In this document: positions 1-64,000 of the stretch, in pieces | Numbering within the stretch: position 1 is the stretch's first letter | How the letters are laid out: every line of letters begins with the position of its first letter | Source: Psammoneis japonica | Taxonomy: Eukaryota | NCBI GenBank assembly: GCA_008632985.1 | Contig: QPGO01000006.1 | Span: forward strand, 741,138 to 805,137 | DNA: 64,000 nt | Direction: 5' to 3' | The notes under the pieces: generated by a model | The model's database searches: none | Told to the model about the DNA's origin: nothing | What the model saw: the letters and a program-made list of their open reading frames with translations, nothing else | Translations under genes and position numbers: made by a program

Positions 1-227
1 CTCAAACTGGGGGAGGAGCTGTTGGTTCCGTCAGCACTTTGGGTGGCGGAAGTTCGTCACTGTCTTGAGGTTCAGGTGGCTGAATTGGTGTAGAGTCCAC
101 AGAGTCTGCAGGAGTTTGAGTTGCAGGTGGGGCTGGTGGCGTTGGCTGCTGAGTCGCAGGTGCGACTCGATCGGCAACGTCGTCGCGAGAAGTGGGTGAA
201 TCCGGCACAGCAATCGATGGAGCAGGC

Positions 228-2137
228 TCAAAATGGCCGCAAACACAATGTTGCTCTGGCCAGTTCTCGCTCTTTACGTTGACGCTCTGGAGGGGCAAGC
301 CACTCATCGTGTGAATGAACTGCTTGATCCTTCTCCAGAGGGATGCATGTCGATTGGTTGAGGCACAAGTGTTCCCAGTGATCAGGTGGATCCGTCTCCC
401 TCTTGATTGATGGCACGGTTGTGAAGAGATCGTCAAAGACCACATGATGCTGAGGAGTGACACTGCCAGTTTGTAGATTGAGGACCAAAGGAACCTCACT
501 GGAATGGATGGCACTGAGTCCCACGAACAAAGCGCGATGAGTGCGAGGTTCCCAACGCGGGAGTTTCGTTCTGGAAGCAAGGGTCGGATCAAGTGCGTGT
601 GCTGGACATCCCCATGTGTGAATGTCTCGCAGTCGATGTCTTGGCACTGTCGAGCTGGTGAAAATGTCCGCTGGGCAATGTCCCTTGGAATTTGGGGTGA
701 CATTGTAGATGTGCGTGGCACAAGAAACAGCCATGGGCCATGGGGAGCTGTCAACTCCCCCTTTCCAGTGGATTGATGCATGAAGCAACATCGCTCTTGC
801 CGTGTTGGAGATGCTTCGGATGCCCCGCTCTGCGACGCCGTTCTGATGATGGGCGTTGGTTCCACAAAAACAGAGACGTTGTCTGTGGTCTCATGCACGT
901 TGTGCAAAAGCGTTGGCCTTGAAAGCACCACTGTCGGCAAGAAATTCTTGGACGATGACACCGTGGTCCAAAGCATGTTTCTCAAACGCTTGCTTCGCTC
1001 GAATCGTCTCAACAGCGGAGAAACCAAGTTGGTGCTCGACCTGGACACATCCAGAGGCATGGTCGACAAAGATGCAACCGCCCTTGAATTGCTTGGATGT
1101 GGCTTTGCCACAGGAGTCGAAGGTTCGGCCCAAAAGGCGCGACTCAAAATGATCAACGCTGACAGCCTGACCCGGTCGAAGATGGTCAGCTCGAAGGGCC
1201 CCGTTGCGTTCAGGGACTGTCGACTTGTGAGTGGATCCAAGGGAGCGTCTGTGACCTTTAGCACACTCACATGCCTCGCATCTTGGGTGGTCACACTTCG
1301 CTGCGGACTTGAAACGGTTCGAAAGGAACGGAACTGCGCGGAGAAGTGCTTGGACGCGACCAAAGTTCAAATGGCCGAAACGGGCGTGCATTTCGATGAG
1401 AAGCTTCTGGCCTGCCGTGAGGTTTTGATTCTCCTCGTCAAGGATCTGTAGATTCACTTGTGGAGTGGCAGATGCGCCCTTGGTCATCAACGCAACAGGT
1501 GAGTGGCTTGATTGATGATGTGGCATGACCAACTTGCCTGTCCCGTCAACATGTAAACGGAAAGTGGTTTCATCGCCCTCACACTTCCCACGCACCCCCT
1601 TCTCTTCGTTGAAGAGGCATTGAGGCGACAGCAGGCGTTGACGGGCTCCAGGGACTGGTGTGCCATGGTGTTCAGTTGGATGGCAGCGCCACTCGGCGTT
1701 GTGAACACCCACGCAACCGGACCGGTGCCCTGGATGGTTAGACCGTTGGCAATCCCATTGATCTGCAAGGGTTTCTTGGGAACAGTCATGGGCCCCGTAA
1801 AATCATCTTTGTCGGGGGCAACAGCCAGCGTGGCACCAGTGTCCATGACGACCGTGAGAGCCTCGTCCAACAGGCCGATGAGTGCCTGCAGATCGGATGC
1901 AAGGAGGTCGGCTTGAGATTGTCCGGTGAGTAGTTGGATGGTGGAGGCATTGTAGACGACGGGTCTAACACTTGCTTCCTCCAACAGTTCCACAGGATCT
2001 TGAAAATGGGCAGTGTCCACGATGTGATTCGGCAGACAGAGCTCGTCAAACCGGAAGAAATCCGGGCTGAAGTCCTCAAGAGCGTCGGAAGAAATGCTTC
2101 TGGTCGTCGAGAGGTTCCAGTTCCTCACAGGTGTCAA
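228..2137 (-). pseudogene. Copia pol fragment (protease + integrase), broken over several frames
   Basis: DTG protease motif, HHCC pre-integrase motif, DDE integrase core and copia SH3-like tail KLPRWEPR...LFVG. Confidence 0.88.
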
Positions 2138-3249
2138 AGAAGGCTGATTCGTCTATCGCATCAGACCGTTCAGCCACTTCTGGGCTCTCCCAGCAGGCCT
2201 TGAGACGAGTGCTCAGTGCGTGTGATGGATGGCGGGCGACAAACTCGGTGAGCACTCGCGTGCCTTTGATCCTGTGACATTCGAACAGCGACCCCGTGTC
2301 TGACACCATCCGGTCATCTGGCTCTTCCACAATGTGGTAGACTTGAGAGCCAGCGGTCGAAAAACGGCTTGGAACGTTCAAGAATGGACACTCGGGCTGT
2401 TGACCGGCGTAAACTGCTGACCATGCCATCACTGCAACGGATGGGACCATCCAGGAGGCTGGAAACCCGTGCAAGGTTGGGAGTTTGCGCTGGCGGCGTA
2501 GAGCTCGAGGGACACATGGGATCGGAGCAAAGCAAAGATGCAGTGCCGTTTCCCAAAACATGGTGGCAAGCCAGAACATGAATGGCTTGACCCGTCCCAA
2601 GATTGATCGACGCGAAGTGGGCTCGTCTTCGACGTCCTCGTGACAATCATCCGCACCCAGGACCTCTGGATCGTAGAAATCGAAGCCACGACATGCACAC
2701 ACGGAGGTGAGTCGCAGTGTGCGTCTTCAAAGTGTACGTCGTGTTCAAGGATGAGATCTGACTTTGTGTCGTCTGACAGCACATCCGTCAAATGTGCGGG
2801 AGCATCAAAGAACTCATCTGGATGCTTGACAGAGCACAGCTTCGAGGCCGGAAACAACTCAACAGCCGGTGGTTCGTTTTCAAATGTAGAGAAAGCGTTG
2901 GAGCATTCGCAGAAGTCATCGGCGTCTTCGGGAGTGACAGTCTCAACCACGATGGGAGACACGACTGGATCCACGACTGAGGTGAGTGCAGGTGGGCTCG
3001 TTTCGTTGCAAACCACCTCAGCACTGACGACTGCATTGCTCTCCCTCTCGGCCGAAGAAGCCGGAGCAACAATGATTGCAGCAGCAACAGGGGCGGAACA
3101 GAAATCCGGGTCGGTGACGGCATCCGCAGCCGCGCACCACATTCCCGTGAAAACCAACTCGTTGGGGTCGGAGTCGTCTCCCTCTGGTTCCATGGCAGTC
3201 TGAGCTGGCGGACCCATGGGCACGCCACCATCCGGATCAGCAACAGAAG

Positions 3250-4628
3250 ACAAATTCCCGGCTGGGGTCTCCTTGGGAGGGCGCTTGTGGTGGTCTTCGG
3301 TGTGTTCCGCGGCAGAGTGCTTCTGGCAAATTCCAGGTTTGTCAGCACCCTTCGCCGTGCACGTGGCACACCATTTCCATTCCTTGCCATTCTTGTCCTT
3401 CTTCGTTTCCCCGTCAAATTTGGTGCGCCAGGCAGTGATGGGTCCCTCTTCTTCTTAAAGGGTCGGCTGCAGGCGGCGGATTGGGAGGAGGATCGTCGCG
3501 CGGCGGTTTGGCGTTGCACTTCGGGCACGTCTTCTTGGCGCACCCCTCGAGACCGCAACCAAAGCAGTGCTTCATCTTCCCAGGGTCATCCGCAGTCGAA
3601 AGATTACTCTCGGGTAGCTTGGCGACCAATGCAGGCCACTCCCCGTCCTTCACGAGTTCGTTGTGTTGCTCCTGAATCCACGCAATGATGCCGACCGGTC
3701 CGAGCGTGTTGCAATCGCCATCGGACACGATGTCAGCAGGATTCTTGAGGCGGCACTTGCGTTCCACAGCCTTGACATCGTCGAGCTTGTTGTAGACTCG
3801 CCGATTGAAGTGTTCAGAGGACGTAGAGGAGATCTTGTGGAGCAGCTTGGAGCTTGTGTTCGCCGGAAGAGCGCAGTTGGTCTGCACAATTTTCACGATG
3901 CGAAGAGCTTCGGTGGCAAAGTCCGTGCAATCCTCGCCGGGACAGTCAACCAAACTGGGGTCTTCTAGCTGCTTCTTGGCCGTCTCAACATCCGTCAGAG
4001 CACCAGCATTGCAAGCATCGAGAGCCATCATGAACAGAACAGATCCAGGGTGGTCTTGGCAGTCTTGGAGATGGTTGAACTTGGTCTCGATTTTCTCGCG
4101 AAAGGCATTGGTGATTCTTGAGTGAACGAGAAGTTGAGAGAGCCCAACATCGTCGAGCTCGATCTCGTCGCACTTGGTGTCATCGGCAGCTGCTTTCCGA
4201 ACCGTGCACTCGTTCACGAGATCGGTCACAGCAAACTCGTGAAGATGATCGAAGATGTGTTGAACCGTGTCGGCGCTGTTCTTGACATGGCAGAACGTCT
4301 GCTGACCGTGGGCTTCCACTAGATCTCGAACAGTCTTGACGAAATGGTCCTTGTCAAGTTCGTTGATGGGACCGTCCGAAATCTCAAGTCGACCGTTGAA
4401 CTTGGAAGTCATTGCGGAAGCTTGTTGATCGCGGAGAGATCGTTCTGTCGAGTCGAGAGCCTTGGGATGACGGCGCTGAGAGGCGAGTCGGCAGGTTCTG
4501 TCGTTGGATTGTTCATGCCTGTCGTTGAGTTTGGAACCACCAATGTAAACCCCGTGGGTTGGGTGAATTCCACCATGCAACGGCTTGGTTGGAGGCGGAG
4601 GAGCGGTCACTGCGGCGTTGGCGGCCAT
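3250..4628 (-). pseudogene. Copia gag with two zinc-knuckle-like motifs
   Basis: ORF 3414-4628 contains HCFGCGLEGCAKKTCP; a shifted frame near 3290-3380 reads KWCATC...KHSAAEH. Confidence 0.8.
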
Positions 4629-4702
4629 TGCGTCGGCAAACGCCTTCGCCAGAACAGCCGGATCGATGGCGCCATGACAGAGAGTGCAGCATGGGAGGTT
4701 CT

Positions 4703-4895
4703 TGTTAGAATGAAGACGAGAGAAGCGAGAGAGACTCAGCCATTTCCCGGGTTTGCTTCAAAATCAAAACCGAAAGCGTCCGTGACGATGACTCGGTCAG
4801 GAGCTCTCGTCAACGCACAATTTGGGCTCATGACCAGTCGAGATACAGTCCCACAGCTGGGCAGGATGGATGAGACCTCGAGGTTGGCAGCAACA
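4703..4895 (-). repeat. Candidate 5' LTR / leader of the copia element
   Basis: Minus strand runs TGTTG...TAACA just upstream of gag. An internal GGTCATGAGCCCA (4823-4835) resembles a copia-type PBS. The second LTR is outside the window, so boundaries are unverified. Confidence 0.4.
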
Positions 4896-5039
4896 TGAAT
4901 GGCACAGAGGCAAACAGACGCTTGTTCAAAGTCGTTGTCTAAAAATCACGACGAATGTCGTTGCTTCTGTTTGAATCGATTTTATGATGAGCCAATTGTT
5001 TCGAAGAGAAAATCTGAGTCTGGGTTGTGGTCGTGAGAT

Positions 5040-6620
5040 GCGACCAGAATGACGTTGAGTCATGACTGCCTTGGGTTGATGATGCCCACTTGCAGCATTT
5101 GTGGAGTTCAACTTGCCATTGGCGTCAGAAACCTCCAGTTCGCCAGCATGCAAAACCGGTTCTCCAGCCAAGATGCTGGCATGGTTGGCAGTGAAAGTGT
5201 TCCTGGCAACACACAGCTTCCTGTTGATGCCCCAAACAAATGTCCAGGGTCCACTGGGGATGGGACCATCTGTGAAGTACAATCGCATGGTGTTTCCGTT
5301 GTCCGAAACGTCGAATTTTACCGCCACCTTTTCTCTGTCGTTGACGTTGAACATGTGAAAACGGAGCCGGTTCATCATGGTGTGCGAGCAATCTTCATGC
5401 TCAAAGTGCTTCCCTTTCCCGCAGTCAAGCCATTGGAAGAAGGGTTCTCCCAAAAATGGTGTTTCAACAAGCAACCAATGTCGGAAGTGCTTCTTCAAAC
5501 ATCTGTTGCGCCTTGTCTTGGGGTCTTCTAGCTCTAAAACACCAGGCAAACCAATTCCTTGCGCGACAGACAAGGCCATGTCACTCTTGTTGCGTGCCTT
5601 TTCTGCACAACGGCTCCCCTTTGATGAAACGATTCCTCGAGCTTCGTCTTGGTGCGCTTCCTGATCCACCAACTCTCTCCCAATTCGTCGTTTGACATTT
5701 TTGCAAGAGACTTGTTCGTTTCCTTAACCTGCAGCATGTTTTGAACATGAACACTGCACTTGTCCTTTGTGTGATCATTTCGCTTTTGTGTGAAGCCAAC
5801 TGAAACTTTCCGCCCTTTTTCGTCTAGAGCAATTGTGCTCAGGATTGGTCCACCTGTCTCAGTGCAATTCAACTCAAGCTTGACTTTCTTTGCAGGTGTG
5901 TGTGACTGTTTGTGCTCCACAGGCCAGGAAAAGAGCCACCGCCTTCACTCAAGAAAATGCGATGCCGTGGCCAACCACTGTTTCAGTGGCAGACGCACTC
6001 GTCTGTCTTGTCATCAGTCGAACACTTGTTGCTTTTTGCATCACGCATCAAAGAAAGCAACACAAGATTGTGGTTCTTTGTCTTGATGTTTTCCTTGATT
6101 GGCCAATTCCCATGGTTTGGGACCCCCACCATCCTTGCATCTTTCGCGCATGCTGCCAAAGTGATCATGACATCATCACGAAGTAGACAGCCTCTGCAGG
6201 AATCCCTCCTTTCATGAGTGGGTGCAAACAAAGATGACTTTTGGTCAGTTCCATTGCTTTCCTTGTTGTTCGGGGTTCGTGAACGGCACACGGTGACAAG
6301 CAAACCGTTCGAACAGGCTTCGCTAAAACCACTCTGCTCTTGGCAACTAGATTTCGTTTTGACATCCGTTTTGCCTTTCTCCTTGAACAGGTTCAGATTC
6401 AACGCAAAATTTCCTTCGCCAAGGACTGCGCATTGCAGCCGATTGATGTGCAACATAGAGAGATGCACAGAATCAGCCTTTTCTTGATGCGTTCACCGCT
6501 GGCAGAGCCAACATCGAGAACTCGAGATGTCGTAGATAATTTTGACATCTGCAATGCTTTTGTCCAGTGGTCTCAACTTTGTTTTTGCTCAGTGCTGGTG
6601 AACAAGGTTGATGTGGTCAA
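5040..6620 (-). pseudogene. Hypermutated, frameshifted copy of the IQM-like gene at 9926-11644
   Basis: Collinear with about 10050-11600 (e.g. EPFFQWLDCGKGKHFEH vs EPFFQWLDYGKGKHFEH; ASGHHQPK vs ASGHYRPK), with frameshifts and systematic TA->TG/CA changes. Confidence 0.93.
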
Positions 6621-7399
6621 ACAAATTGAGGTGGGTTCTCGGAATCATCGATGGGGGCAAGCCCTGTCTGCGGTGCATGTGCCAATGTTGAATGTTGCGA
6701 CTCTGGATGGAAGATCGCAAAGCAGCTTGAAAATTTCAATTTCACTCGGGTTCGGGGACACACGGCACATTGTGAACACAGAAATCTTGTGGATGAATGT
6801 GACATTGCCACAACAGATTTTTCGACAAGACGAATTGAAGCACCTCTCTGGCAATGTGGCGAATTTTGCACTTGCAACTTGGCTTGGTTTGCAGGTCTTC
6901 TGTTTGCTTTTTGTCTCTTGCACCCGGTCAACACAGCAACTGCAGTTGATGGCAATGGGAACGCACTTGCAAGCCACACAGTGAGCTTTGAGAATCAGGA
7001 AGACCAAGCACGTGTGCCAGTTGGCAAGCTGCAAAAAATTCCAGCACAGAAGCCAAAAAGTCAAGTCATGACACTCAAAGAAGTGTTGTCATTCAGGGCT
7101 GGGAAGTTGAGAGGAATCTAACAGCAAAGGCTGGGAAGTCAACAGGAGTGCAAAAAAAAAGGGTGAGAAGACAACAGGAGTCTAAAGGTGCAGCTCACAT
7201 TGGCAGATCGCAGCAAACAAGCCAGCAGGACCAATGCAAAGAAATGGTCTCTGGAGGGCCTTGCTGTCAAAGAAGCTGTTGAGGGTCTGCTGCTGAAAAA
7301 GAGCATGGCAAGGTTGCATTGGGGATCAGTGGGACAGAGTGTGAAGCTGTTGGCAAACTGTGAAACTCTGGCACAAGTCCCAGGGAAAGATGGGGGCAA

Positions 7400-8345
7400 G
7401 GACACAGTTGAGTGTGGCTGGAAGCATGAAAGATTTGAAGGAGTGGGTTCATGATGCCGTTGCCAAATCAGGGCAACAGGCAGATAGATGGTCACACAGA
7501 AACCACAAGAAAGATTGGTGAGCATGTTGGAAGAGTGCTTGAGCCAAAGGTGAAGGTGCGCTGGCATCTCTGAGGCAGGAGAGCATGCCAAAAGAGCCGG
7601 TGCATCCATCGGGAGTCACCATGTTGGAGAAGGACAAGGCAATCTGGGGCAAGAAATGTGGTCACTGTGTGAAACAGAGTGCAATCTGCAAGATGATCCA
7701 TGCAGAAGGTGAAGGCATTCAATGCAATCATGGGAAAATGTGCAAAGGCCACTTGCCACAAACTTGAAGGAGTGATGGACTTTCCAAGAGTCCCAAAGGA
7801 GTTGGACATGGTGGCAGCACTGCTGGATGTTTTCAAGTTGATCTTGTTCAGGACCAATGAGAAGATGAACCTGCATGTCCAGGCCATCAAGGCTTGGAGG
7901 CAGTTGACACTCATGCATCAAGATGAAGGAAAGTTGCTTCAAGATCATTGCAGTCAATTTGTGAGTTGTGAGCATGGTTGAAGCAATGAAAAAGTCCCAT
8001 CTCAGGACCATCCCAGAAGAAATTGCCACGAAAGAAGATGGGTTCAGCAGCAAGGATGCTGATGACACCCAGAACAAAGGAGGAACAAGTCATTGACCAC
8101 GGTGCTGGTGGAGGGCACCAAGGAACACAAGCACCTCTTAAAAGACCTGCATTGGCAGCCTGCACTGGGAGTTGACACACTCACCCCAATTCAGCCAAGA
8201 ATCTGCTGCAGGTGTTGGACACCTGCAGGACCATCAAAAAACCCAGGGCACAAGCTTTGCACAGAACAAGAAGACACAGACCAAATGCTGGAAATGCAAC
8301 AAGGTTGGACATCAGGGGAGAGATTGTCCTGAGACAATGACCATC
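7400..8345 (+). mobile_element. Decayed LTR-retrotransposon gag fragment
   Basis: CCHC knuckle KCWKCNKVGHQGRDCPE at about 8282-8332, upstream gag-like segment AWRQLTLMHQDEGKLLQDH; almost no TA or CG. Confidence 0.7.
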
Positions 8346-9329
8346 TGTCAGCCGAGTTTGATGATGCAGACCATGGGAGTCAGTGGAGCAGTCAATGTGG
8401 TGTTGTGGGCATGGTTTCCAAGTGCCATCCTCCCATGCTTGATGCACATGATGGCTTGTGTGAAGGAGTGGCAGGTTGGAACATTAGAGTTGGCAGAGGC
8501 AGTTTTTGCTTGACAGACAATGTTGCCATGTGAGACACACTGACAACTGTGGACAATGCGGTGATTTTGCATTTGCAACTCAGATTGAATTGTGGGCCTT
8601 GTGTTCACTTTTAGCTTCTGCACCCGGCTGACATGGTGACAGTGGTTGACAGCATTGGGGTTTTGTTTGCAAGCTGCACGGTGAGCCCAGGGTCAGTGAG
8701 ACTGAACGCGTGCTGCTGGCTGCTGGCAAGCTGTGAAATTCCAACAGCTGTGGTGCCTGCACAAAATGGCCAGCAACATTGGCTGCTCTCACTCCTTGTG
8801 CACCACCCCAGCATTTGGCTGCTGCAAGCCTGAGAGCCAGCCAGCTGGCAATTTCTTGCAGCCTGTGGGTGGTCGAGAGTGAGCGAGTTGTTCAAAGCAT
8901 GCTGAGCACCAGCTTCTCTCTCACAATTGGCTGCAACAAGCTTGGCCTCAGCTTCTTGGTGAGTGACATGTGTGGAGCCCCCCACAGCTCATCCCATGCC
9001 ATGACCTGCACACCCAGCTGAAAGGCAGTGTGCCAGCACTTGACAATTTCCCCTGCAACACCAGCTTTGGCTGCTGCCAATGCTGGAGCACAGCTGCCAG
9101 CATGTTCCCCATTGTTGCTGGTGGATCTTTTGCACCAGATGGCGGATGAACAAGAGCGCCAGCATGGTGCTCAAGGTAGACTCCAGCAGCACCCGGACAG
9201 CCACTGGGATTCTTTCTTGAAACAGCCTCTTCTTGTCTTGTTTCTCTCTCCTGATGCTTTGAGGCACTTTGCCGTGTGCACCTGCCTCAAATTGGAGTGA
9301 CAAAGTTGATCCTCCACACATGTTTCCCA

Positions 9330-9520
9330 AACACAGTGGGTGGCAGCCCACACACAGTGGCAGAACAAGCTTTTTGAAAACAGGGTTTGGGAAAAAGTTC
9401 TCTTGGCACACAAAGTGGCTTTTGTTCATGTGTCTGGACTGCTTGACCTCATCTTCTTGAACAGGGTGAGATTCAGTGCAGCAACTTCACCAAGGACTGC
9501 ACATTGAAGCCTGATCATTG
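9330..9520 (-). pseudogene. Third, more diverged fragment of the IQM-like gene N-terminal region
   Basis: RLQCAVLGEVAALNLTLFKK matches RLQCAVLGEGNFALNLNLFKEK at about 6375-6445; shared DNA ttgaacagg...caaggactgc. Confidence 0.7.
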
Positions 9521-9925
9521 ACACACCAATCCATGATCCCGGGGCCACAAAACAAGAGAAACAAACAAACATGGGGGAGGTCAAGTTGGCAAATTGAGCC
9601 AGTGATCCTGTCCAGGGCTCTTGTGGACAATGTTCAATCAAGTTGATAACGTGCGTCAGACATCTCAAACAAAGAACACAAAGTTTCATTGCATTGCATC
9701 CTTGTGATCATCCCAAAGCGTCCCTCCACTTGACCCAAATGATGCAGTCATAACAGTGGCAGCCCAATCAAGTTTACCTGGTGTTCTTTTCAGCACAAAG
9801 CCATTTTCTGGAAGGCATGTTTGGAACAGAGATGAAAATAAAATGAGCATGTGTGCAAGATGTGTGAATGTTTTGCGGGGATGCTTTGAGCCATATTATA
9901 ATTGTCGGTGCTAAAGTTTGGATTC

Positions 9926-11644
9926 TTATGTAAAAATTGTCTGCCAAATTTCTTCTGGAAATATTGTGCAGTCATGGTCCCAAAAAATGGCTTGTCTCGT
10001 TATGCCATAATTATCGACGAGAAACTTATAGAACGACTTGACGTGTTCCATCTTGGGTCGATAATGCCCGCTTGCAGCATTCGTGGAATTCAACTTACCA
10101 TTGGCATCAGACACCTGCAGTTCCCCAGCATGCAAAACCGGTTCTCCAGCCAAGATACTGGCATGGTTGACAGTGGAGATATCTCTGGCAATGTACAGCT
10201 TCCTATTGATACCCCAAACAAATATCCAGGGTCCACTGGGGACGGGGCCGTCTGTGAAGTACAATCGAACCGTATTTCCGTTGTCCGAAACGTTGAATTT
10301 CACCATTGCCTTTTCCCTATCGACGGTATTGAAGACCTTAAAATGATGGCTGTTCAACATGGAATGCGAGCACTCCGTATGTTCAAAGTGCTTCCCTTTC
10401 CCGTAGTCAAGCCATTGGAAGAAGGGTTCTCCCGAAAATGGTGTCTCGTCAAGTAACCAATGTCGGAAGTACAGCTTCAAACATTTCGGAAGCCTTGCGA
10501 TCTTGGGGTCTTCTAGCTCTAAAACACCGGGCACACCGAGTCCTTGCTCGACAGACAAGGCGATGTCGCTCTTGTTGCGTGCACTTTCCACGTACCAGTT
10601 CCTCCTTTGACGAAACTCTTCTTCGAGCTTCTTCTTGGTGCGCTTCCTGATCCACCAATCCTCTCCCAATTCATCGCTTGACATTTTTGCAAGAGAATCG
10701 TTCTCTTGCTCATTATGCAGCATGTTTCGAATCAAAACACTGAAATTATCGTGTGTGTAATCGTGTAGCTCTTGTGTAAAGCTAACGGGAACGTTGCGCC
10801 CTTTTTCGTCAAGGGCAATCGCTCTCAGTACCGGCCTACCAGTCTCGGTGCAATTCAATATAAGCTTGACCTTCCTTAGAGATGGCTGCGACGTGCTTGT
10901 ATTCAGCATCCTGGGAAACGAGCCACCGCCGCCATCGCTCAAGAAAATGCGATGCCGTGGCCAACCACTGTTTCGATGGTAGACGTATTCGTGTATCTTG
11001 TCATCAGCCGAGTCGTTGCTGCTTTCTTTGTCACGTGTCAAAGACAGCAATACAAGATTGACGTTCTTGCTCTTGAATCTTTCCTTGACTATCCACTCTC
11101 CATGGTTTGGGACCCGCACTGCCGTTGCACCTGTTGCACATTCTGTCGAAGTGATCACTACATCGTCGCGAAGTAGAAAACCTTGACATGAGCCACTATT
11201 GCTCCCAAGAGTGGGCTCAAGACGAGATGATATCTTGTCAATATGATGACTTGGTGAACGATATACGTTGACAAGTAAACCTTTCGAACAGCCTTGGTTA
11301 ATAGATTTCGTCTTGTTTTCGATTGGAGCTTTCCTCGTGTACTGGACCAGATTATGCTTTCGGCCAGAACCATAGAGGCGTATTTGACTTTCTGTGATGC
11401 AAGATAAAATGGCATCATCAAGGATTGTGTACTGCAGCCCCATCATTGTGAAACACAGGGAGAAACACAGTATCAGCCTTCGCTTGGTGTGTTCATGGCT
11501 AGCAGAGCCGCAAACGAGAACCCGAGGTGTTTTTGACATTTGTGCAAGTGGTTTCGACTCAGTTCTGTTACTTCCCAGAACTGTGCATTCACGAGGACCA
11601 GTCTTGTTTGTTTCTTGTGTAACGGTGTTGAAGAAAGGTTCCAA
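9926..11644 (-). CDS. Protein with a C-terminal IQM-family-like domain and a degenerate trypsin-like N-terminal motif
   Basis: 572-aa ORF. EDPK...PFFQWLDYGKGK...WIFV...LYIA...HASILAG...AGEL...ASGHYRP resembles the conserved plant IQM C-terminal domain. True start uncertain. Confidence 0.8.
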   Translation of the reverse strand: MEPFFNTVTQETNKTGPRECTVLGSNRTESKPLAQMSKTPRVLVCGSASHEHTKRRLILCFSLCFTMMGLQYTILDDAILSCITESQIRLYGSGRKHNLVQYTRKAPIENKTKSINQGCSKGLLVNVYRSPSHHIDKISSRLEPTLGSNSGSCQGFLLRDDVVITSTECATGATAVRVPNHGEWIVKERFKSKNVNLVLLSLTRDKESSNDSADDKIHEYVYHRNSGWPRHRIFLSDGGGGSFPRMLNTSTSQPSLRKVKLILNCTETGRPVLRAIALDEKGRNVPVSFTQELHDYTHDNFSVLIRNMLHNEQENDSLAKMSSDELGEDWWIRKRTKKKLEEEFRQRRNWYVESARNKSDIALSVEQGLGVPGVLELEDPKIARLPKCLKLYFRHWLLDETPFSGEPFFQWLDYGKGKHFEHTECSHSMLNSHHFKVFNTVDREKAMVKFNVSDNGNTVRLYFTDGPVPSGPWIFVWGINRKLYIARDISTVNHASILAGEPVLHAGELQVSDANGKLNSTNAASGHYRPKMEHVKSFYKFLVDNYGITRQAIFWDHDCTIFPEEIWQTIFT

Positions 11645-33172: not shown

Positions 33173-33203
33173 GCTCTCGATGTGAAATAAGCGACAATCG
33201 ACA

Positions 33204-49110: not shown

Positions 49111-49176
49111 CAGCAAGACCAAAGATATCCGATGAAGTCAATCAAGCGAGCTACCGAACATCATGCGCTAACTTTC

Positions 49177-52719: not shown

Positions 52720-55678
52720 CCGGTGTGATGCCGCTGCTGTTAGCAGTGCATCCCAATGTGGAATGCACGAGCGAACGATGACGTGTCAAGTGAATCGAGA
52801 CGAGCGATCTGCAACGTGTCGGGTCCGTCAATCATGCACGGAAGTTTGCTTCAACCCCAATTTTTCATGAGATCTGAACTTTTGCAAAGGAAGACTCTCC
52901 AGCCATCTCGACACAAAGCATCGCCAGTTGCAGCTGAGACAACATCTGCGGGGACCAGAATGCACTGGTCGCAGAGTCTGCAGAGACCGGGAAACACCGG
53001 CTGCAGATTTGTCATGTCGCATTCATTGTCATTCATTGCACTCTTGACACACTGAAGATTTGTTGCACACACTCGTCTGCTGACTCCAGAAAACACTGGA
53101 AGTGGACCCTGCAGTGACTGGGAACACCAGTTGCAGGTCGGATTGTCTGCCATCTGTTGATCACATTGACTTTGCTCAGATTGTTCTCATTGCAAGTCTC
53201 ATGGGTCGTCGTGTCATCTGGTGTGCACCTGTTGCTGCGTTGTTGGTTCAACTTATCTTTGCGCAGTGTGAGCCTGCCGTTGCAAGCTGTCTTGTGGATG
53301 ACAGCAACACCAGGCACCGAGACAACACAAACAGATGTTTTGAGAAGCTTTGTTGCAGGAATGGAAACGAGTGCGTCCCTTGGGTTTGTTTGGTGTGTGA
53401 CAGATTGTCAAAACTGTCTCAGACTGCTCGACTTTCTGTCAACAAATTGAAAGAAGCCAGACACCTGTTGACTCCATCTGAATGGAACCAAGTGTCGGAA
53501 GACCCACACGATTGTCATCGCATCGATGACGACCACATTCCACGGGATTGCCGATGGATTTCCGACCTGTCACTTTCGCCAAGAGCTCGACACATTGTTC
53601 CGAACGACAACAGAAGGTCTGAAGGATTCACTTGTTGCAGGCCTTGTAAAAGGAGTCTCTGCACTGCTTCTATGCCTCCACACGCAACAGCAAATAATTG
53701 CTGTTTTGGAACACCACCACCTGAATTATCGTGTCTTGCCAAAGTGGAGCTGGCTTTGTTGACACCTGTGAAAACACATGGCTGCTGCTTCAGTTTTGTC
53801 GGTGGCAAACAGAAGAAACTGCAAGGCAGTCTTTCCTGTTGCAAGACAAACACAAAGAGCATCGCCCGCACCATTGTGCACTTTGACGTGTTGAACCTTC
53901 ATCAAAATGTGGTTGTGTTGGCATCCGGCAAAATGACACCAGAGCAAAGGCGAATGGCCAGACAAAAGAACAAAATCAGGACTCACCATGTGATGAGAGC
54001 ACCAGAATGGCTTGTCCATCACCACGAGAATTGGATGAATCAAGACATCGATCTAGAGGAAGTGCGGAGTAATTTGCAGAGTCCAGTTTCAGTGGACAAT
54101 GGCAGCCCAGACGAAAGCGAAAATGCAAACATTGAAACCACGGAGTCCTGCAGTGTTCATTTCCCCGATGGCGCCGTTTCTTCAACAACTGGTGGACAAC
54201 GTAATTTAGACAGCTTCAAAGACTTGGTGCACGATGCAGCTGCAAGCGGTTTTGACATTGAATTCAAAGCTGATCTTTTGAAAGAATCAGTCAGTGACTT
54301 TAAGGATGACAACCTGGCAAATGCTTGCTTGCTGCAATTTCCTTGTGGGTGTGGCGGTGTTGATGAAACAAGAATGAAAGAAGACGGGAGTCTCACCGAC
54401 TGTGCAAATCTAGCACATTGCGCAGATCACTTGGCCCGCATTTCTCAGCCCCATTTCCACAAGCAACTCTTTGTTCTGACCCTGTGCAATCTGACTGTGA
54501 AGCAACGAATGGTGCACAGTGCTGGATGGAAAGTAAGAGACAAAAATCAAGCCAGACAATTCTCAAATGAACTGACACAAGACGACGTCGACTGTGCCAT
54601 GTGTGACAGACAGACCGGTGAACGCAGGAATTATGCATTGGGACATCGTTTCTTAAGTGCAGTGGATGTGGTGTCGGCATCTGTTCCACGTGCAAATGAA
54701 GCAGCAAAAAAAATGAGAAGAAATGCTGAAACCTGCCAACACCACTTTGGACAACCTGGAGCATTTTTAACGACAAGCCCCGATGATGCCAACTCCTTTT
54801 TAGTTCAAATTTATGCGGACATGCTCATCGACAAAGGCAGAGATGTGACAGAAATGTCGGATGAAGAATCAACCGAAAAGGCTAAGGCAAGAAACGAGCT
54901 TCGTGTGGAGCACCCGGGTGTCACGGCTTTTGCACTCGAAATGTCATTGGAAATCGTCACAGAAGAAGCAACAGGATGGGACTTAAAAAGGAATTCACCC
55001 AGAGAAGATTTTGAATTCCACATGGGGAGACCCTCCGCTTTCACAGCTGCAATGGAAGAACAAGGTAGACTCTCGGCACACGGTCACATTCAGGCATGGT
55101 TTGAAGACATGAACACAGCAAGAGACAATCTGCACTCTGACAACAGAGATTTTAGGCGTGATGGTAAAAGAACACTGTCCAAACTGACCAGTCAGATCTG
55201 CACAACTGGGTTGACATGTTTAAAGGACCCAACCCAACAGATGACAGCTGAGGAAAAAGAGAAACACATGCTCGGACTGAAAGCAACCCAATTGGCATTC
55301 ACAATGAACAACGCGACTGCAGGACACAAGCTTCAAGGAAGCGGTGTCGACAATGTGTTTGCACACAGCTGGAGCCACACACAAAACTGGGCACATGTCA
55401 TGCTCTCCAGGGTTAAGACCAGAAATGGTCTGCATCTTCGGCAACCGCTGAAGAGAGACTTAAGTCTGCACAGACTGCCGGACGGGTGTAACACCCTGCT
55501 CCGGTTGATGGAAGGAAAAAGTGTCACATGCTTCACCAACGAACAGCATGATGACATTTTGCAGTCCAATTGACACACAGAACATTTTGACACTGCATGT
55601 GGGAATTGTTTCTACATTTTGGAAAATGTTCCAAGCTTTGTGCGCGGGCTTGCAGGCGTGCCCGGCAACAACCGATAG
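52720..55678 (+). mobile_element. Internally deleted Helitron (Rep-helicase), TA-hypermutated
   Basis: ORF 53102-55573: LLQFPCGCGG, HHFGQPGAFLTTSP, HUH motif EEQGRLSAHGHIQAW fused to a Pif1 C-terminus TAGHKLQG...AHVMLSRVKT; 3' hairpin CGGGC/GCCCG (55645-55664) then GATAG ending at 55678. Confidence 0.88.
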
Positions 55679-55999
55679 AAAACAAAGGGTCTAATCTAAC
55701 AAATCGATGTTAGCACATTATTGCAATGACAGACACACTCAGCAACCAGTGACACACAACGTTAGGACAGTTCTCTTATCATCTGCCATAGAGCGATCAC
55801 ACCAGAATTATCAAAAAGGGGAAACCCACGTCTCTTCTTATAATGTGTCCATACACAAATGCAAGAATTAAATCGCCATTTTTTGATATAATGTTAAAAC
55901 ACAAATGTAGAATTACGTCGCACATTAATTAATTGCGAACCCATCATTTAAGCGTGCGAATTTTTTAAAAAATGATTGGTGGCAAGTAAAGATCAAAGC

Positions 56000-57700
56000 T
56001 CTAAAATTTGATGCTCGCGCGCATGGCAATCCAAACCAGCCCGGGTTCCACACCTCCTCACTTCGTGTCCAGAGTTCCTGCCATGAAGGAGGAACCAATT
56101 TTTCGGGGAGTTGCTTGTGGGTTGTGTTGTCCGTTCCCTGCAGAAGAAAGGAGAAAGGCGCACTCTGTGCCGTGTTGAAGATTTGGCGCTCTTGTGCTTG
56201 TTCCCAGTGGCGGCTGACAACCTGAGACCGTTCCGTGAGTGTTGCTGACTCTCACAGGATCATCCGAAATGTTTGTGGATCGCCATTTCCCTTGAACACT
56301 GGGGTCACTGATGATGCCAAAGAAGCGTCGTGAAAGACTGCTGGGTGACATTTGAAAGAAATGACAACTGCTCCAGAGCAAACTCTTTGGACAACTCCCA
56401 AGTGAGTTCAGCTGTGAGGTTGTGGAGCGTCATCAAAATCATGTGATGCACACTCAACATCAACCAGATGGAAGGGGGGGGGCAGCAAGTTTTGGTGCAG
56501 CAGCACACCACCTCTCAAGAAATCCGGCAGTGCCTTTGGGTGCACTCATCCCAGGGTGCGGAGCTGGTGGCAGCTTTGCAGCACTCATTGAGGTCTTGCA
56601 GCAAAAAGACTTTGGAGCATGAACTCATCTTGAGAGGTCTCATCCAACAGGGAGTCAACAACAGAGGCACCAAAATTAAAATGTCTGCACTGTGCAGTGT
56701 CACAATCAACCCCATCTTCAAGAAGCCCAGCTTGCTGAAGAAGAAGAACAGCCGCTCTGCGATTGTTCCATGACCAAGACAGATCAAGACATGCACTGTC
56801 ATCCTTTTTGTCCAAAGGCAACAACCAATCTCAGTCAAGAGGAGCTTTGGTGCAGTTCCTCAGGACTTGCTCATTGCTGCTGGCTCTCAAGCCTGCATTG
56901 TGAGATGAGTTGTTCTGTCAAGGTGACACTTGTCACCACCGCGGTCGTGGCTTGCCAGAACAGGGTGGGTTGGCATGGCATTTTCAATGGTGGCATGCTC
57001 TCCTTGTGTTGATGGAATGATGCACAGAGGAGGCACATCTTCTGGCCCAGCACTCAAGCAGTCTGGGGCAAGAGGAGGAGGAGCATCACAACAAGCTGGA
57101 GATTGGGCCATGCCTGCTGGCAATTGCACCTGGCTGCAGTGGTTGAAGTTGTGGGATTCTCACATCAACGCCATTCATGGGCATGACAAACCAGGAAATT
57201 CATGAAAGAATGTTGAGATGTGGAGGCTGAGGCCAGTGCATTTGCTCCTCCTACAAGGATGGCCACCAGTGCCCACACCTGCCTGAGGACATTTTGCATG
57301 ATTTGTTGGACTTGGTGGATGAGCACCTTCAACATTCAATGCACAGGTTTTGAAACTGGATTGTGATGGCAATGTCCAAGTCAAGCATTGGGGATGCTCA
57401 TTGTTTGGCATTGAGGGCCACATGAACGATTGCCAGTCACTTCGGCTCCCACACACTCCTGCCTCACATTGGTGCATGACTGGGGGTGTGGGTTGGCTTG
57501 TTGCTGGAGTTGCTGGGTAGAAGCATGGTGGCACCTTTGAAAACAGAGTTTGTTTGGTTTGGGTTGAGTTACCTTGTCATCTCGACAATTGAGAAATGAG
57601 ACGGTGAAATTGATGTGAGGGCCGCCATTGTAATTTCAAGTTGTGTGTTCTGCACAAGAAGGCAGGGTGTCACACGCATGGCAGGGGAATGGAGCAGAGA
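56000..57700. mobile_element. Decayed transposon relic, class unknown
   Basis: TA- and CG-depleted block with no recognisable intact domain. Confidence 0.55.
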
Positions 57701-57949
57701 TGGTTATTTGTCCTCACGCTACCATGGCTGTTGCTACAGATCGTTTCTGTTGCCTCCAATGTTCCAGTCTGACATCTTGACTTTTTCAGGAGAGTGAAAC
57801 ACTTAGCTTTCCCTCTCTGGTCGAACTAAAGCACATTTTGTCAACCTGGATCTTCTTGCTCTCCAGCTCTAGAGAAAGCCATCAGCTGTTCCTGACATAT
57901 AAATAATGTTCTCGAATGCATAGGTATTACAATAACGTGCCTCTCTAGC

Positions 57950-59077
57950 TTATCTTGTCTCTTCGACTTGATTGAAAAACTCACAATCCACTCGCATCAC
58001 GTCTTGAGCATAACGGTACAATTCCCGATCCACCGCATTCATTTGCCCATAGAGATCTACATGGTACAATTCTGCATCTTCGTTCTTGCCGCTTGTTTGA
58101 ATCAACGACATGTCTATTTTTGCTTGATTTGGGCTCTTGATGTAGTGCAAGCTTTGTTCCAGACACGGCGACGATTTGAGATCCATCACGATATCAAACC
58201 GGCTCAACATTTGCTTGGCCAGCGCCACGTCTTTATGCGACACTTGATAATTCATGGGACGATCATTCGTAGAAGCACTCACAAGACTCCACGTTTGAAA
58301 ATTGGATTGAAGGATGTTGAGTCTTGGTCCACGCGACGTGGGGAGACGGCCTGGTTCTCGCAAGAAGGCATCCACGTGAAGAATGGCTCGCGTGGTGGCT
58401 TCTCGTACCGATATGGAATAAAGTCGATCCGGACAAAAAGGCGCATGATCGAGATAGCGCTCATTCGTGACGAATGCATGAGACTTTAAATTCAAACAAG
58501 ACGATGCTTCCTTGTTTGGGACATTGTCACACGCATCCGTCCAGAATTGACACAAGCTTTGGAATCGACACGGCTTACGCTGTGGAGTGATGGGACCTCG
58601 TGCCCATTTTCGTCTCTTGACACGAGGCAGCTCGTCTTCTTCCAGTACCTGATTGTTGGGATCGGGTCCCCATACGTGACATAGCAAGTCGTCCTGTGCC
58701 ACGGTTTCTGGAATGAGAAAATGAAAACGATTCGGCACCTCGATGCGTTCCTGAAAGGACTCGACAAAAAAAGCAATATGCTTTTTGTAGCACCATGGAT
58801 CGTCCAGTAACGCCAAATATCGTCTCTGTATATTAATTTCAAACGGATCGTCTGTTTCTTTTAGTTGCTGTATAATGTCATGGCATTCCGAAGCACTCAT
58901 TCTTGCTGACTCTGATGCTGAAACAGTATTTTTGCAATTCGACTTCTTATACTGATGATGCAACAATACAAACGAAAATATGAGAGCAATACTGAGCAGT
59001 ATGTTTGCAAACGATCGCTGACGCCTTCTCGAGCGAGGCAGAGACGGCTCTCTGGATGCTTTCGAGACGGCCACCAT
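57950..59077 (-). CDS. Type II membrane protein, possibly sulfotransferase-like
   Basis: N-terminal TM ILLSIALIFSFVLL; AKQMLSRFDIVMDL and NAVDRELYRYA resemble sulfotransferase C-terminal motifs; no clear PAPS motif seen. Confidence 0.7.
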   Translation of the reverse strand: MVAVSKASREPSLPRSRRRQRSFANILLSIALIFSFVLLHHQYKKSNCKNTVSASESARMSASECHDIIQQLKETDDPFEINIQRRYLALLDDPWCYKKHIAFFVESFQERIEVPNRFHFLIPETVAQDDLLCHVWGPDPNNQVLEEDELPRVKRRKWARGPITPQRKPCRFQSLCQFWTDACDNVPNKEASSCLNLKSHAFVTNERYLDHAPFCPDRLYSISVREATTRAILHVDAFLREPGRLPTSRGPRLNILQSNFQTWSLVSASTNDRPMNYQVSHKDVALAKQMLSRFDIVMDLKSSPCLEQSLHYIKSPNQAKIDMSLIQTSGKNEDAELYHVDLYGQMNAVDRELYRYAQDVMRVDCEFFNQVEETR

Positions 59078-61221: not shown

Positions 61222-63004
61222 TTACAAACTCGAATTTATCGATCGCCATCTCCGTCTCTTGCGTCGATCTTCACTGGAACTGGATAGGTGGTGATGCCCA
61301 CTCCCTCGTACCCCTGAATCGTGCCCACCACGGCGAGCCTGCCGGGTGTATCTGGATTCGACGTTTTGAATTTCTCGTTGTATCTTTGCATCCTTGTCCA
61401 TATCACAATCACCACACTTGTCCAGCACGGCTTGTGTATGCTTCAATTCGGCATCGAGCCGGTCCACTTCATGATAAACTTCATTCAAGTCCGCCTCGAG
61501 CGCTTCTGCGTGTCGTTTCCACAAGTCACTCTGGTGTATCCAATCCTGCCGCGACATGCATCGTGGAACCATGGGATGCGTAAAGCCATAATTGGCAATC
61601 ATGGCGTCTTCGCAATCGTCCGAATACCAATAGGTGACTTCTTGTCCCTTTTTGTAGGGACACGTGGCAATGAGCTCAAATCGCTTGGTTTCCGAATTGT
61701 ACGAACCCCGTATACATGGAGGACCAAAGTTGAGCAAGTCGGCAATGGGTGCCAAAAAGGAATGTTGCTGTGGAGGAATGGTTGCCTCTTTGTTGCTATT
61801 GCTGTTTTCTTCTACGTTCTCATCATCCAACTCTCGGACCCACTCTTCGGTGGGTGTTTCGGCGGGTGGTACGCCGACGGCAACCATGGGGGATATAACT
61901 TCGTGTTCACTGCTTGCTACACCATGATCTCTTGTTGTAGCATGTTCTTGTTGTTGATCCAACTCCTTGACGGGCAATTGCCAATGTCTTGAATTCACCA
62001 TGGCGAAGGCCCATTGAAACTTTTCAAACGAATACGAATCACTACCTTTCTGAAACACATTGGGATGCTGTTCCATCAAGCGCTCCATGACTTGCTTGTA
62101 CATTTCTCGAACATCCCGTTTAATCCCACGTGCAATCCGTGCCACTCCCTCGGTGGCGTCTTGTCTCAGCGGGTGGAATCCCATAAGAAGGGCATTTCAT
62201 TTGTTGGACTGGATTTGAGTATTTGCAAATAATGATGCAACGGAGAGATCGTCCGAGTTGCAAGTGGTACAGTATGGCTACCGTCAGGAGCGGCAGCTCG
62301 GCATTGTCCTCCCAACCGTACTGCTTTCGTGCTTGGGGTCCCAACAGCTGACTCAGGACGGGATCATGATCAATCGTTGTGGATACAGTAATCATGGCGT
62401 GAAAGGGAATGGAAATGACAACGTCCTGTAGAGAAAGGAGGAGAAACGTGAGTATTGGATTAGAAACCATAGGGCGCATAGATTGGAGAGAAACCTGTAT
62501 GGGATTGACAGAAAGTAGCAATTCTTACACACGTATAAGCTCACATGGTACTGTACTTACACCAATCGCCACATCTTTTGTCGCTGCCAATCCTCGTACT
62601 TTTATTCTCGGTACATCTTCCACAGACGGTGAGTAAAACGCATCGTCGTCACTCTCCATTCCAAAACTTTCTTCTCCCTCTTCTGGTTCAACATACTCGA
62701 GACTGACTCGAAAAAAGTCGTAATAATCAAACACTCGTACTTCTAATGACGTTTCAATACCCATGACTGTATGACACCAATCAAAAAATTCCATTTCCAG
62801 AGATGCGGGATTGGGAGACGCGAATTGATCACGTCGTGGTTTGACATGGTCCTTGCGAATTGTGCTTGGGACTTTTTCCGAAGAAGCAATTGATGGTGCA
62901 GCGTTGTTATTATTCTCGTCCTTTTCATGTTGGGTTCGTCGAACAGACGAGTCACTGGGACTTATATAAAGTAGTAATAGTGCAAGTTGCTTCAGTCGAA
63001 TCAT
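61222..63004 (-). CDS. SET-domain lysine methyltransferase (Rubisco LSMT/SETD3-like) with a signal peptide; intron and frameshifts
   Basis: FFDWC, VRGLAATKDVAIG/DVVISIP, FQWAFAMVNSR, LAPIADLLNF, GQEVTYWY...ANYGF. Confidence 0.85.
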
Positions 63005-63239
63005 GATGTGCAGTTCTGATTCTCAAACAAGCCGTCGCAATGGTCATTGTCACGGATTGCTTTTTTTTTTCTGTCCCACCATGTCCGTCTGCCAATCGCG
63101 AATAATCATCGTGCATCGCGCGAACGACACTCACGGAAAGACAGACAGGCAGACGGTTTTCATCCCCCATCGATCGATCTGTCAACGACATTTTGAAGTG
63201 ATCCACCATCTACGTAGGAATGACCCTCTCCACTGACAC

Positions 63240-64000
63240 CCCCCCACACTAAGGAGAATCAAAAGCCTGGTAAAAACAGGATTGAAGATCTGCTAGTGCA
63301 AAAGAGAAGTGGTGAGAGTCATGACTGCCAGACAGACAGACAGCAAAACAGAGACAATGCATCGTCCGTTTCTGCGCCCGACACCATGTCCCACTCATTA
63401 AACCAATCCATTGAATCGCCAACAATTGACAGACCAGGAGATTGCTCGGAGCATGAGCAGGACAGCAAACTGGGAGGTCTGCTGGGATGATGCCAGAGTG
63501 CACTGTCAGGAGGGCCGTCCAGACCTGGTCTCCAATCCAAGAGGAAATCAGGTGGGCGACCGGAGCAGCGCCAATTTGGCAGCAGTGAGTCACCAGGGAT
63601 TGGCCAAGGCAACAACTGACAACAACTCCAAGCAGTGCAACCCCCCCACAATGGGAGGCTTGCAACATTGGCAGGGTTGGGGCAAGGAGAATCCGAGACA
63701 ATTGACTTCCCAGAAAAGACAATGGACCCATTTGCCTCGTTCGCGGTGCACAGAGAAGCTGTCTGCATGCAGCACACAGATGGAAGCTTGTGCCACACAA
63801 TGTGTTGATGAGCATCAAGGGAGTGTGTTTTGATTGAACCAATCGCCTTGTTCACAACACACACCATTGCTGCTCGGTAACAGCAACACCAGCTTTCTTG
63901 TGCTCAACCAGCTTGCCAAGTTTGCCCAAAGCAATCTTAAAAATAGCCAGTGGGTCAGTCTTGACATTCTCAGAAAAAGAACAAGGGTCAACTGGTGGAG
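63240..64000 (-). mobile_element. Decayed retroelement-like relic, continues beyond the window
   Basis: TA-depleted; FALADLQSCFYQ resembles an RT motif. Confidence 0.45.

Follow-up and report, generated by a model that had tools for sequence, protein, structure and literature searches.

Probable local hypermutation of TpA dinucleotides in decayed mobile and duplicated DNA of the diatom Psammoneis japonica

A 64,000-nucleotide stretch of the diatom Psammoneis japonica (GenBank assembly GCA_008632985.1, contig QPGO01000006.1, positions 741,138 to 805,137 of the forward strand), hereafter called the window and numbered from its first letter, contains five islands that are strongly depleted of the dinucleotide TpA. 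We consider it probable that a local hypermutation of TpA to TpG or CpA struck decayed mobile and duplicated DNA here, and adenine deamination is proposed as its chemistry. As judged from sequence comparison, the A:T to G:C process is specific for TpA, prefers a pyrimidine as the next base (5'-TAY-3'; Y, pyrimidine; R, purine), affects both strands and is sharply bounded. It spared an adjacent gene and an ordinary host duplication, and is independent of the extent of CpG decay. The footprint is the same as that of the TpA-only hypermutation measured de novo in Bigelowiella natans.

The TpA observed/expected ratio (o/e) of the whole window is 0.43 and is bimodal along the 64 kb. In one scan of 1-kb windows, five islands were found at 0.03-0.28 and the remainder at 0.37-0.71; in a second 1-kb scan, island windows (n = 30) had a mean of 0.10 (standard deviation 0.05, maximum 0.21) and host windows (n = 89) a mean of 0.54 (standard deviation 0.11, minimum 0.22). 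A 300-bp scan with an o/e cut-off of 0.25 returned the following segments:

1-9800: TpA o/e 0.09, 53 TA
46601-48700: TpA o/e 0.06, 7 TA
52701-55600: TpA o/e 0.14, 28 TA
56001-57700: TpA o/e 0.06, 6 TA
63301-64000: TpA o/e 0.10, 4 TA

Refinement placed the islands at 1-9890, 46600-48690, 52742-55675, 56003-57700 and 63241-64000, with a TpA o/e of 0.05-0.16 compared with 0.54 in the host. The ratio changes abruptly at their borders, over no more than tens of bases, as evident from the successive values across island 2 (0.93, 0.05 and 0.66) and across islands 3 and 4 (1.02, 0.14, 0.70, 0.00-0.05 and 0.62). Pooled islands exceed the host in TG (1.58 vs. 1.18) and CA (1.63 vs. 1.13), are poor in CG (0.55 vs. 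1.02), are not depleted of ApA (1.17 vs. 1.23) and have a G+C content of 0.512 compared with 0.479. The five TA-depleted, TG/CA-rich islands amid TA-normal host genes, to which an earlier note on this DNA had drawn attention, were recovered by scans that agree with one another, at coordinates within about 60 bases of those given there.

The 300-bp scan additionally picked ten short host stretches of 300-1000 bp with a TpA o/e of 0.08-0.26. Those at 31501-32500, 40001-40400 and 23401-24300 (0.08-0.23) have a TA density far above that of the islands. The first of these (31.5-32.5 kb) has 9 TA over 1.1 kb and includes the open reading frame (ORF) 31866-32333, which matches no Pfam family. Such stretches may represent coding sequence rich in G+C, or else small relics of some age.

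The islands and their surroundings are composed as follows (strand given where one was assigned):

1-4900, minus strand: relic of a copia-type long terminal repeat (LTR) retrotransposon, running off the left edge of the window; the end at 4900 is estimated
5049-6563, minus strand: copy B, a hypermutated copy of gene A, inside island 1
6600-9890, plus strand: relic of a retroelement, the segment 8142-8510 carrying a zf-CCHC knuckle (Pfam zf-CCHC, E = 1.4e-5)
9926-11644, minus strand: gene A, an ORF of 572 amino acids (aa) without Pfam family, the TA-normal reference copy
46600-48690: island 2, a single-copy relic (TpA 0.05, CG 0.19, TG 1.84, CA 2.03)
52431-52741 (311 bp): left flank of a repeat unit, TA- and CpG-normal (TpA o/e 1.02)
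52742-55675, plus strand: island 3, a Helitron Rep relic (TpA o/e 0.14) with an ORF at 53102-55573 that lacks the helicase part
55676-56002 (327 bp): spacer within the repeat unit, TA- and CpG-normal (TpA o/e 0.70, G+C 0.36)
56003-57700: island 4, a relic without Pfam family (TpA o/e 0.00-0.05, CG 0.27)
63241-64000: island 5, a repeat running off the right edge of the window (TpA o/e 0.16, CG 0.32)

Island 1 is a composite of the copia relic, copy B and a CpG-poor zinc-knuckle relic. The copia relic carries the Pfam domains gag_pre-integrase and retroviral SH3; its frame 894-1802 on the minus strand gave 2476 HMMER matches, and tblastn covered 231-2092 and, as a piece of gag, 3669-3824, both on the minus strand. 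Its CpG is nearly intact (0.74-1.09) at a TpA o/e of 0.08-0.16, and the relic at 6600-9890 is poor in both (TpA o/e 0.05-0.17, CpG 0.11-0.20). Island 3 carries Helitron_like_N and DUF6570, the N-terminal and Rep part, and the frames of islands 2, 4 and 5 gave only chance-level Pfam matches (E 0.008-0.08). The islands would accordingly comprise relics of copia and of a Helitron Rep, the copy of a neighbouring gene and three relics without protein family. In keeping with confinement to mobile or foreign DNA, the 1-kb means differ between islands and host (0.10 vs. 0.54), with the proviso that three islands lack a protein family; the earlier description of the islands as transposons is borne out by domains for copia and Helitron only, islands 2, 4 and 5 matching no family.

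The direction of change was read from three comparisons, the first of which sets copy B against gene A. In blastn, 5070-6193 aligned with 10052-11183 at 80% identity over 1132 bp, and tblastn with protein A extended copy B to 6563. Gene A begins 36 bp past the border of island 1, with a TpA o/e of 0.67 at 9891-10200. Of its 39 TA, 17 are TG, 11 are CA and four are kept in copy B; in the reverse comparison, two of the seven TA of copy B are CA in gene A. The 14 aligned tyrosines of protein A correspond in copy B to five Cys, three His and a single Tyr, and the three distant relatives that serve as outgroup (26-37% identity, all from Logan assemblies) contain 2.1-3.2% Tyr, like protein A. Gene A may belong to the host, or it may be a mobile element's gene that stayed unmutated beside its mutated copy.

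The second and third comparisons concern the transposon proteins. The Helitron ORF has 0.2% Tyr, compared with 3.0-4.6% in eight of nine relatives, and none of its seven conserved Tyr is kept (four Cys, two His, one Phe), whereas other conserved residues are kept at 196 of 259 positions (p = 7e-5). The copia integrase has no Tyr in 259 aa, compared with 1.9-5.2% in 28 relatives; none of five conserved Tyr is kept (three His, two Phe), as opposed to 87 of 95 other conserved residues (p = 1.7e-5). Conserved tyrosines reading as Cys or His, as reported in the earlier note, were thus seen in the Helitron, the copia integrase and copy B.

As a control, a tandem pair of host paralogues was used:

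38253-40093 and 41013-42862, minus strand: FG-GAP paralogue pair, 80% identity over 1867 bp

In this pair, 33 of 64 and 33 of 62 TA were kept, and changes from TA to TG or CA were symmetric, with 17 one way and 12 the other. The proportion of kept TA differs between the A/B pair and this pair (p = 1.7e-5). Because the three comparisons are polarised and the control is unaffected, the TA-poor state is derived and specific to the islands, and duplication alone is not a trigger. A 110-bp tandem duplication of 97% identity lies downstream of the FG-GAP genes at 43036-43253.

An extremely improbable account of these losses is selection against TA in transposons, exerted through stop codons, UA-cleaving RNases or TA-target insertions. 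TA is indeed under-represented in most genomes, the host value of 0.54 included, and frames stay open once TAA and TAG are lost, as in the 823-aa ORF of the dead Helitron. However, all conserved Tyr of Rep and integrase are destroyed, an outcome contrary to any that selection acting on the element would permit; moreover, all three codon phases and the non-coding relics are depleted, and the pseudogene copy B is affected as well.

With TAA and TAG lost, many frames of the islands stand open simultaneously. Island 1 is open in 26 stop-to-stop frames of at least 120 aa within 9.9 kb, an example of a false open frame being the 454 aa across the copia integrase, and a further 22 short stop-free frames of island 1 gave no Pfam family.

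To describe the sequence context, changes from A to G between gene A and copy B were folded onto one strand. They were found at 32 of 78 TpA sites (0.41) and at 38 of 499 sites elsewhere, namely at 11 of 177 ApA (0.06), 15 of 166 CpA (0.09) and 12 of 156 GpA (0.08; p = 7e-13). Ordered by the 3' base, the rates in this pair were 0.59 for TAT, 0.41 for TAC, 0.31 for TAA and 0.21 for TAG. The residual TA of the islands point the same way with greater statistical power: RTAY, which presents the TAY motif on both strands, accounts for 3 of 98 (host: 523 of 1717; p = 2e-11), and YTAR, which presents it on neither, for 38 of 98 (host: 282 of 1717; p = 3e-7). The favoured site is 5'-TAY-3', where the change is strongest, and the palindromic RTAY has consequently been brought close to extinction. 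By codon phase, the Helitron ORF contains 0.8, 4.4 and 5.3 TA per kb, compared with 10.4, 11.4 and 11.5 in relatives; the phase of the Tyr codon, which is always TAY, is the most depleted.

Both strands were changed about equally, as reflected by 1754 TG and 1722 CA in the islands, and the TG and CA outcomes in the A/B pair form no strand runs (z = -0.55). A strand bias of the mutator was considered in view of plus-strand counts of 41 RTAR vs. 15 YTAY among the residual TA, 1014 RCA vs. 834 TGY and 893 TGR vs. 697 YCA. It was rejected because these counts are mutually inconsistent for a one-strand mutator; they fit a plus-strand purine skew of 0.52-0.56 in six of seven segments.

The residual TA were also enriched for the pentamer GTAGA/TCTAC (17 of 99 in the islands, 84 of 1718 in the host). 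On the plus strand, GTAGA was counted 16 times and TCTAC once among the 99 island TA, compared with 41 and 43 among the 1718 of the host (p = 1.5e-5). The GTAGA sites lie mostly in the copia relic at 90-3823, and also at 6183, 6532, 9176, 55065 and 57517, in varying codon phase; a TA-poor metagenomic locus described below, L009, has none. This excess may indicate a refractory context or merely the purine skew.

Measured against host dinucleotide ratios, the islands are short of 463 TA and 531 CG, and the sum of 994 compares with an excess of 973 TG and CA. The loss of TA amounts to 70-91% in every segment, whereas that of CpG ranges from 11% (1-5000) to 86% (7001-9890); in 1-5000, a TA loss of 78% stands beside the CpG loss of 11%. 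Assuming host-like starting ratios, this would conform with a fast, saturating TA process laid over a slow methyl-CpG decay. Two processes converge on TG and CA, where the earlier note had credited one: the TA deficit is real, and about half of the TG/CA richness stems from CpG decay. Decay of methyl-CpG to TpG and CpA is present in the islands, with the CG deficit making up 531 of the 994, but it cannot remove TpA. As the sole cause of the skew it was rejected, since it explains none of the 463 lost TpA and its extent is uncoupled from the TA loss; it is itself the second process at work in the islands.

A more serious rival accepts the footprint as real but dispenses with a dedicated deaminase, taking it as a by-product of repeat chromatin that arises from a modified thymine or from biased or error-prone repair in heterochromatin. 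We regard it as unlikely, while giving it some weight. In the modified-thymine route, a base of the 5-hydroxymethyluracil type at TpA would mispair with G, and since TpA is palindromic, a change of T to C at R-T-A is the same as a change of A to G at T-A-Y. In dinoflagellates, 5-hydroxymethyluracil is located at TpA; a literature search found no paper joining 5-hydroxymethyluracil, dinoflagellate and TpA. This rival also draws on the observations that TA loss and CpG loss share domains, both being absent from TA-normal flanks, and that no enzyme is visible in the window. On the other hand, the TA loss of 78% at a CpG loss of 11% implies that the former is not simply tied to long-term methylation, and in the available text on B. 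natans the activity occurs in only 11 of 15 lines, with at most 45 hits per line, which looks regulated rather than passive.

The repair variant put forward in the earlier note, in which errors of the Pol-eta type change WA to WG (W, A or T), did not survive. Pol-eta errors make both TpA and ApA hot, whereas A to G at ApA was at background (11 of 177, as opposed to 32 of 78 at TpA) and the AA o/e of 1.17 in the islands is close to the 1.23 of the host. The other two mechanisms of that note, a TadA/ADAT-like DNA adenine deaminase and the deamination of a modified adenine, stay candidates.

For the support of the assembled bases, contigs of a public sequencing run (X1), which is possibly the assembled sample itself, were compared with the window. 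A contig of 4296 bp with a k-mer depth of 60 covers 46508-50799, from island 2 into a host gene, and reproduces island 2; it differs from the window by 10 letters and four gaps. The assembled bases are therefore supported; a lack of such support in raw reads had been named in the earlier note as a ground for refutation. The depth of island 2 equals the host depth of 60, and that of island 5 is 643 over 63344-64000. Nine of the ten differing letters fall inside the 2.1-kb island 2 (p = 0.01), with four clustered at 47786-47790, which suggests that diversity is raised in this island.

These data bear on a sequencing or assembly artefact, such as systematic miscalls at modified bases in repeats, which we hold to be very improbable. 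Assemblies and basecallers do err in repeats, and X1 may be the assembly's own sample. Yet the contig at depth 60 reproduces island 2, the change from Tyr to Cys or His is clean at the codon level in amino-acid alignments, L009 and public proteins from other sources carry the same footprint, and the mass balance with CpG holds.

The footprint recurs outside the window. Fourteen metagenomic loci encode Helitron relatives; 13 have a TpA o/e of 0.32-0.86, and L009 has 0.02-0.04. This locus of 7.8 kb (1-7761) is TA-poor from end to end, with 13 TA and a CpG o/e of 0.27-0.31. Its context is also alike, with RTAY at 0 of 13 and a TAY:TAR ratio of 8:18 compared with 2728:2212 (p = 0.016), so that a further organism or sample shares the footprint. 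Among 164 retrieved proteins, four (P0001, P0123, P0154 and P0101) have less than 0.5% Tyr and raised Cys and His; P0123 is a public copia polyprotein of 2061 aa with a single Tyr.

The Helitron relic provides a further view, as it belongs to a repeat. Its summed depth in X1 is 1316-2155, compared with about 60 for single-copy DNA, and 923 contigs match at 80% likeness or more. Transitions make up 313 of 395 differing places, and their directions are balanced (84 A>G, 76 T>C, 68 G>A and 85 C>T). At least five CA/TG doublets occur between copies among the 40 of 402 differences listed; they would be expected if a single palindromic dinucleotide of the ancestor, TA or CG, had been hit independently in different copies. 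A contig of depth 68 connects 52430 to 56098 with eight other letters between them and without the intervening 3667 bp, so that the composite repeat at 52431-56097 is polymorphic for insertion or deletion. The unit stands at about 30 times single-copy depth throughout. Its left flank is represented by six contigs at 52475, and bin depth gives it a copy number equal to that of the body. The ends of the unit were not recognisable as Helitron, terminal inverted repeat or LTR termini.

The repeat is also where inherited composition has to be considered, i.e., that elements were TA-poor already at entry or amplification, having come from a TA-poor master or donor. The unit fits this in being multi-copy and possibly recent, with a TA-poor body between normal flanks, and in the equality of copy differences in both directions. 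Nevertheless, we find this explanation improbable. Thirteen of the 14 metagenomic Helitron and all 28 aligned copia relatives are TA- or Tyr-normal; copy B is mutated and copy A, 3.4 kb away, is not; and footprint and context bias are common to unrelated classes and relics. The CA/TG doublets point to independent hits, even though their ancestor could also be CG, and a TA-poor master itself had to become TA-poor.

Several findings weigh against the reading that a TpA hypermutation by adenine deamination struck these relics. In three of the five islands no transposon protein could be recognised, and island 2 occurs as a single copy. The three changes of Tyr to Phe in the Helitron and copia proteins are not changes of TA to TG or CA, the difference between TAY and TAR reaches only p = 0.057 within the A/B pair alone, and the TA-loss percentages assume that elements began with host-like TpA. 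As X1 is possibly the assembled sample, it is not independent, and the sole hint of a recent event is position 47764, one of six residual TA of island 2, which is CA in X1. Of the ORFs scanned within the 64-kb window, none showed a deaminase domain, in line with the earlier note, which saw no responsible enzyme there. Since TpA is palindromic and A to G after T equals T to C before A, thymine chemistry fits equally. Lastly, the repeat unit has a TA-poor body of 2934 bp between TA- and CpG-normal flanks of equal copy number. Targeting of whole insertions would not leave normal flanks, which makes "the whole transposon is targeted" an oversimplification; the body may already have been poor in TA when it amplified. 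On a second reading, the termini may have been kept by selection in a transposing lineage, and on a third, homology to the coding sequence of transposons may guide the targeting, and not the insertion.

In the mechanism proposed for the hypermutation, adenine in DNA would be deaminated enzymatically to inosine, which is read as G, by a TadA/ADAT-like deaminase. The enzyme would be recruited to silenced foreign DNA and act in bursts that quickly saturate, and the effect would be the killing of transposon genes with loss of every Tyr codon. The context of a 5' T and a 3' pyrimidine is compatible with a TadA/ADAT-like DNA deaminase (cytidine deaminase fold, HxE...PCxxC). The tRNA base A34, which is the target of TadA and ADAT2-3, always follows U33, matching the need for a 5' T; bacterial TadA reads U-A-C, close to TAY, and activity on DNA is known for engineered TadA. 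TadA/ADAT2-3 and ADAR share with the process described here the conversion of A to inosine read as G, but they are RNA enzymes, and neither a Helitron nor a gene copy is accessible to a route through RNA. ADAR prefers U or A as the 5' and G as the 3' neighbour. Editing by ADAR via RNA was rejected, with ApA at background (0.06), TAG the slowest context (0.21), and the Helitron and gene copy affected.

The closest known system is the TpA hypermutation of integrated DNA of nucleocytoplasmic large DNA viruses and virophages in B. natans (Mettrop et al., bioRxiv 10.64898/2026.01.13.699255). According to the text available of this preprint, 231 of 302 nuclear mutations in a mutation-accumulation experiment lay in two integrated viral regions, and 230 of these 231 were A to G or T to C, all at TpA (10.64898/2026.01.13.699255). 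The process was active in only 11 of 15 lines, with no more than 45 hits per line, and, genome-wide, windows and coding sequences in which TpA was low but CpA+TpG high were enriched for reverse transcriptase and DDE domains (10.64898/2026.01.13.699255). An adenine deaminase was proposed, with an ADAT2 homologue as candidate (10.64898/2026.01.13.699255); DNA activity of amphioxus ADAT2 is cited in the same source (10.64898/2026.01.13.699255).

As far as that text goes, the two systems share a TpA-only A:T to G:C change giving TpG and CpA, foreign DNA as the target, regional borders and a low-TpA footprint. The excess of A to G and T to C at TpA only was found here in the copy comparison (32 of 78 vs. 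38 of 499; 28 of 39 TA of gene A). Windows of low TpA and high TG/CA are present at 6001-10000 (TA 0.05-0.17, TG/CA 1.60-1.90) and 53001-58000 (TA 0.03-0.41, TG/CA 1.52-1.74), and the windows of 1-5000 agree with the B. natans footprint on TA only (TG/CA 1.25-1.49), bearing in mind that o/e may differ from the Rho used there. In contrast, B. natans is a chlorarachniophyte and thus belongs to a different supergroup lineage from the diatom; its mutations were measured de novo, whereas those described here are deduced from copy comparisons; its main target has a Rho TpA of 0.45, compared with a near-saturated o/e of 0.05-0.16; and its targets, in the text available, are integrated viruses rather than a gene copy and elements of the copia and Helitron classes. 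The TAY preference and the interplay with CpG decay do not occur in the available B. natans text, from which the words diatom and trinucleotide are absent as well.

The remark of the earlier note that no description in diatoms was known stands, a full-text literature search having found no description of TpA hypermutation for diatoms and, elsewhere, none beyond B. natans; the phenomenon as such is in print with the 2026 preprint. In what could be consulted of the respective papers, mutation accumulation in Phaeodactylum tricornutum identified CG, CC and TG contexts as mutagenic with no TpA effect reported (PMC6604790), and a study of diatom retrotransposons contained nothing on dinucleotides, hypermutation or point mutation (PMC2806351).

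Repeat-induced point mutation (RIP) of fungi is alike in that dinucleotide-specific transitions riddle repeats, inactivate transposon genes and leave skewed islands. RIP changes CpA to TpA in all copies of a duplication and depends on RID, an enzyme resembling cytosine methyltransferases. It therefore raises TpA, whereas in the islands TpA is destroyed and TG and CA stand at 1.58 and 1.63, and it mutates all copies, whereas gene A and the FG-GAP pair (80%) were spared. For its opposite direction and the sparing of copy A, RIP was rejected; the reversed direction had been pointed out in the earlier note, whose A:T to G:C process at TpA is likewise supported by polarity, specificity, the control pair and contigs. 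APOBEC3 is likewise a deaminase that drives hypermutation of mobile elements, fixed in the genome. It converts C to U on one complementary DNA (cDNA) strand in a TC or CC context and is strand-asymmetric, as opposed to A:T to G:C at TpA on both strands, in a DNA transposon too. For the features of RIP, a supporting passage is found in PMC9998398.

Beyond the islands, the host genes of the window are dense and their ORFs mostly uninterrupted, and a search with Rfam gave no match in the 64 kb. A host protein of 520 aa contains DUF6824 (E = 1.6e-42); its three nearest Atlas clusters are DUF6824 with Bacillariophyta as the commonest phylum (scores 0.87-0.88, to be taken as leads only). Together with the dense ORFs, this fits a diatom host, the domain evidence for which comes from this one family. 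A host WD40 protein is AAMP-like with animal, plant and fungal neighbours, and a host ORF of 1062 aa has only two relatives, at 31-33% identity; neither informs on the taxon.

TpA-specific A:T to G:C hypermutation has one prior report, the 2026 preprint on integrated viruses in one chlorarachniophyte. While the kind of process has been known since then, its occurrence in a diatom on transposons, its near saturation and its defined TAY context are new here. The near-saturated footprint on retrotransposon and Helitron relics suggests that it is more than a curiosity of one species, and the disabling of mobile DNA in major marine algae may widely proceed in this way. Handles toward the enzyme are its sharp borders, its TAY context and the lack of dependence on CpG decay. 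Gene callers turn such relics into long proteins, as with P0123, and Tyr-free, Cys/His-rich "proteins" together with TA-poor windows provide a cheap screen across genomes. It is possible, though we put it forward tentatively and with more doubt than belief, that diatoms and chlorarachniophytes share an old, dedicated defence in which a TAY-directed DNA adenine deaminase, independent of cytosine methylation and guided by homology to transposon or viral coding sequence, erases all tyrosine codons of an element in short, saturating bursts and so kills it; guidance by homology, and not by the whole insertion, is considered because the TA-normal flanks of the 3667-bp unit suggest so. If true, this shared defence would mirror fungal RIP and be spread across the SAR supergroup.

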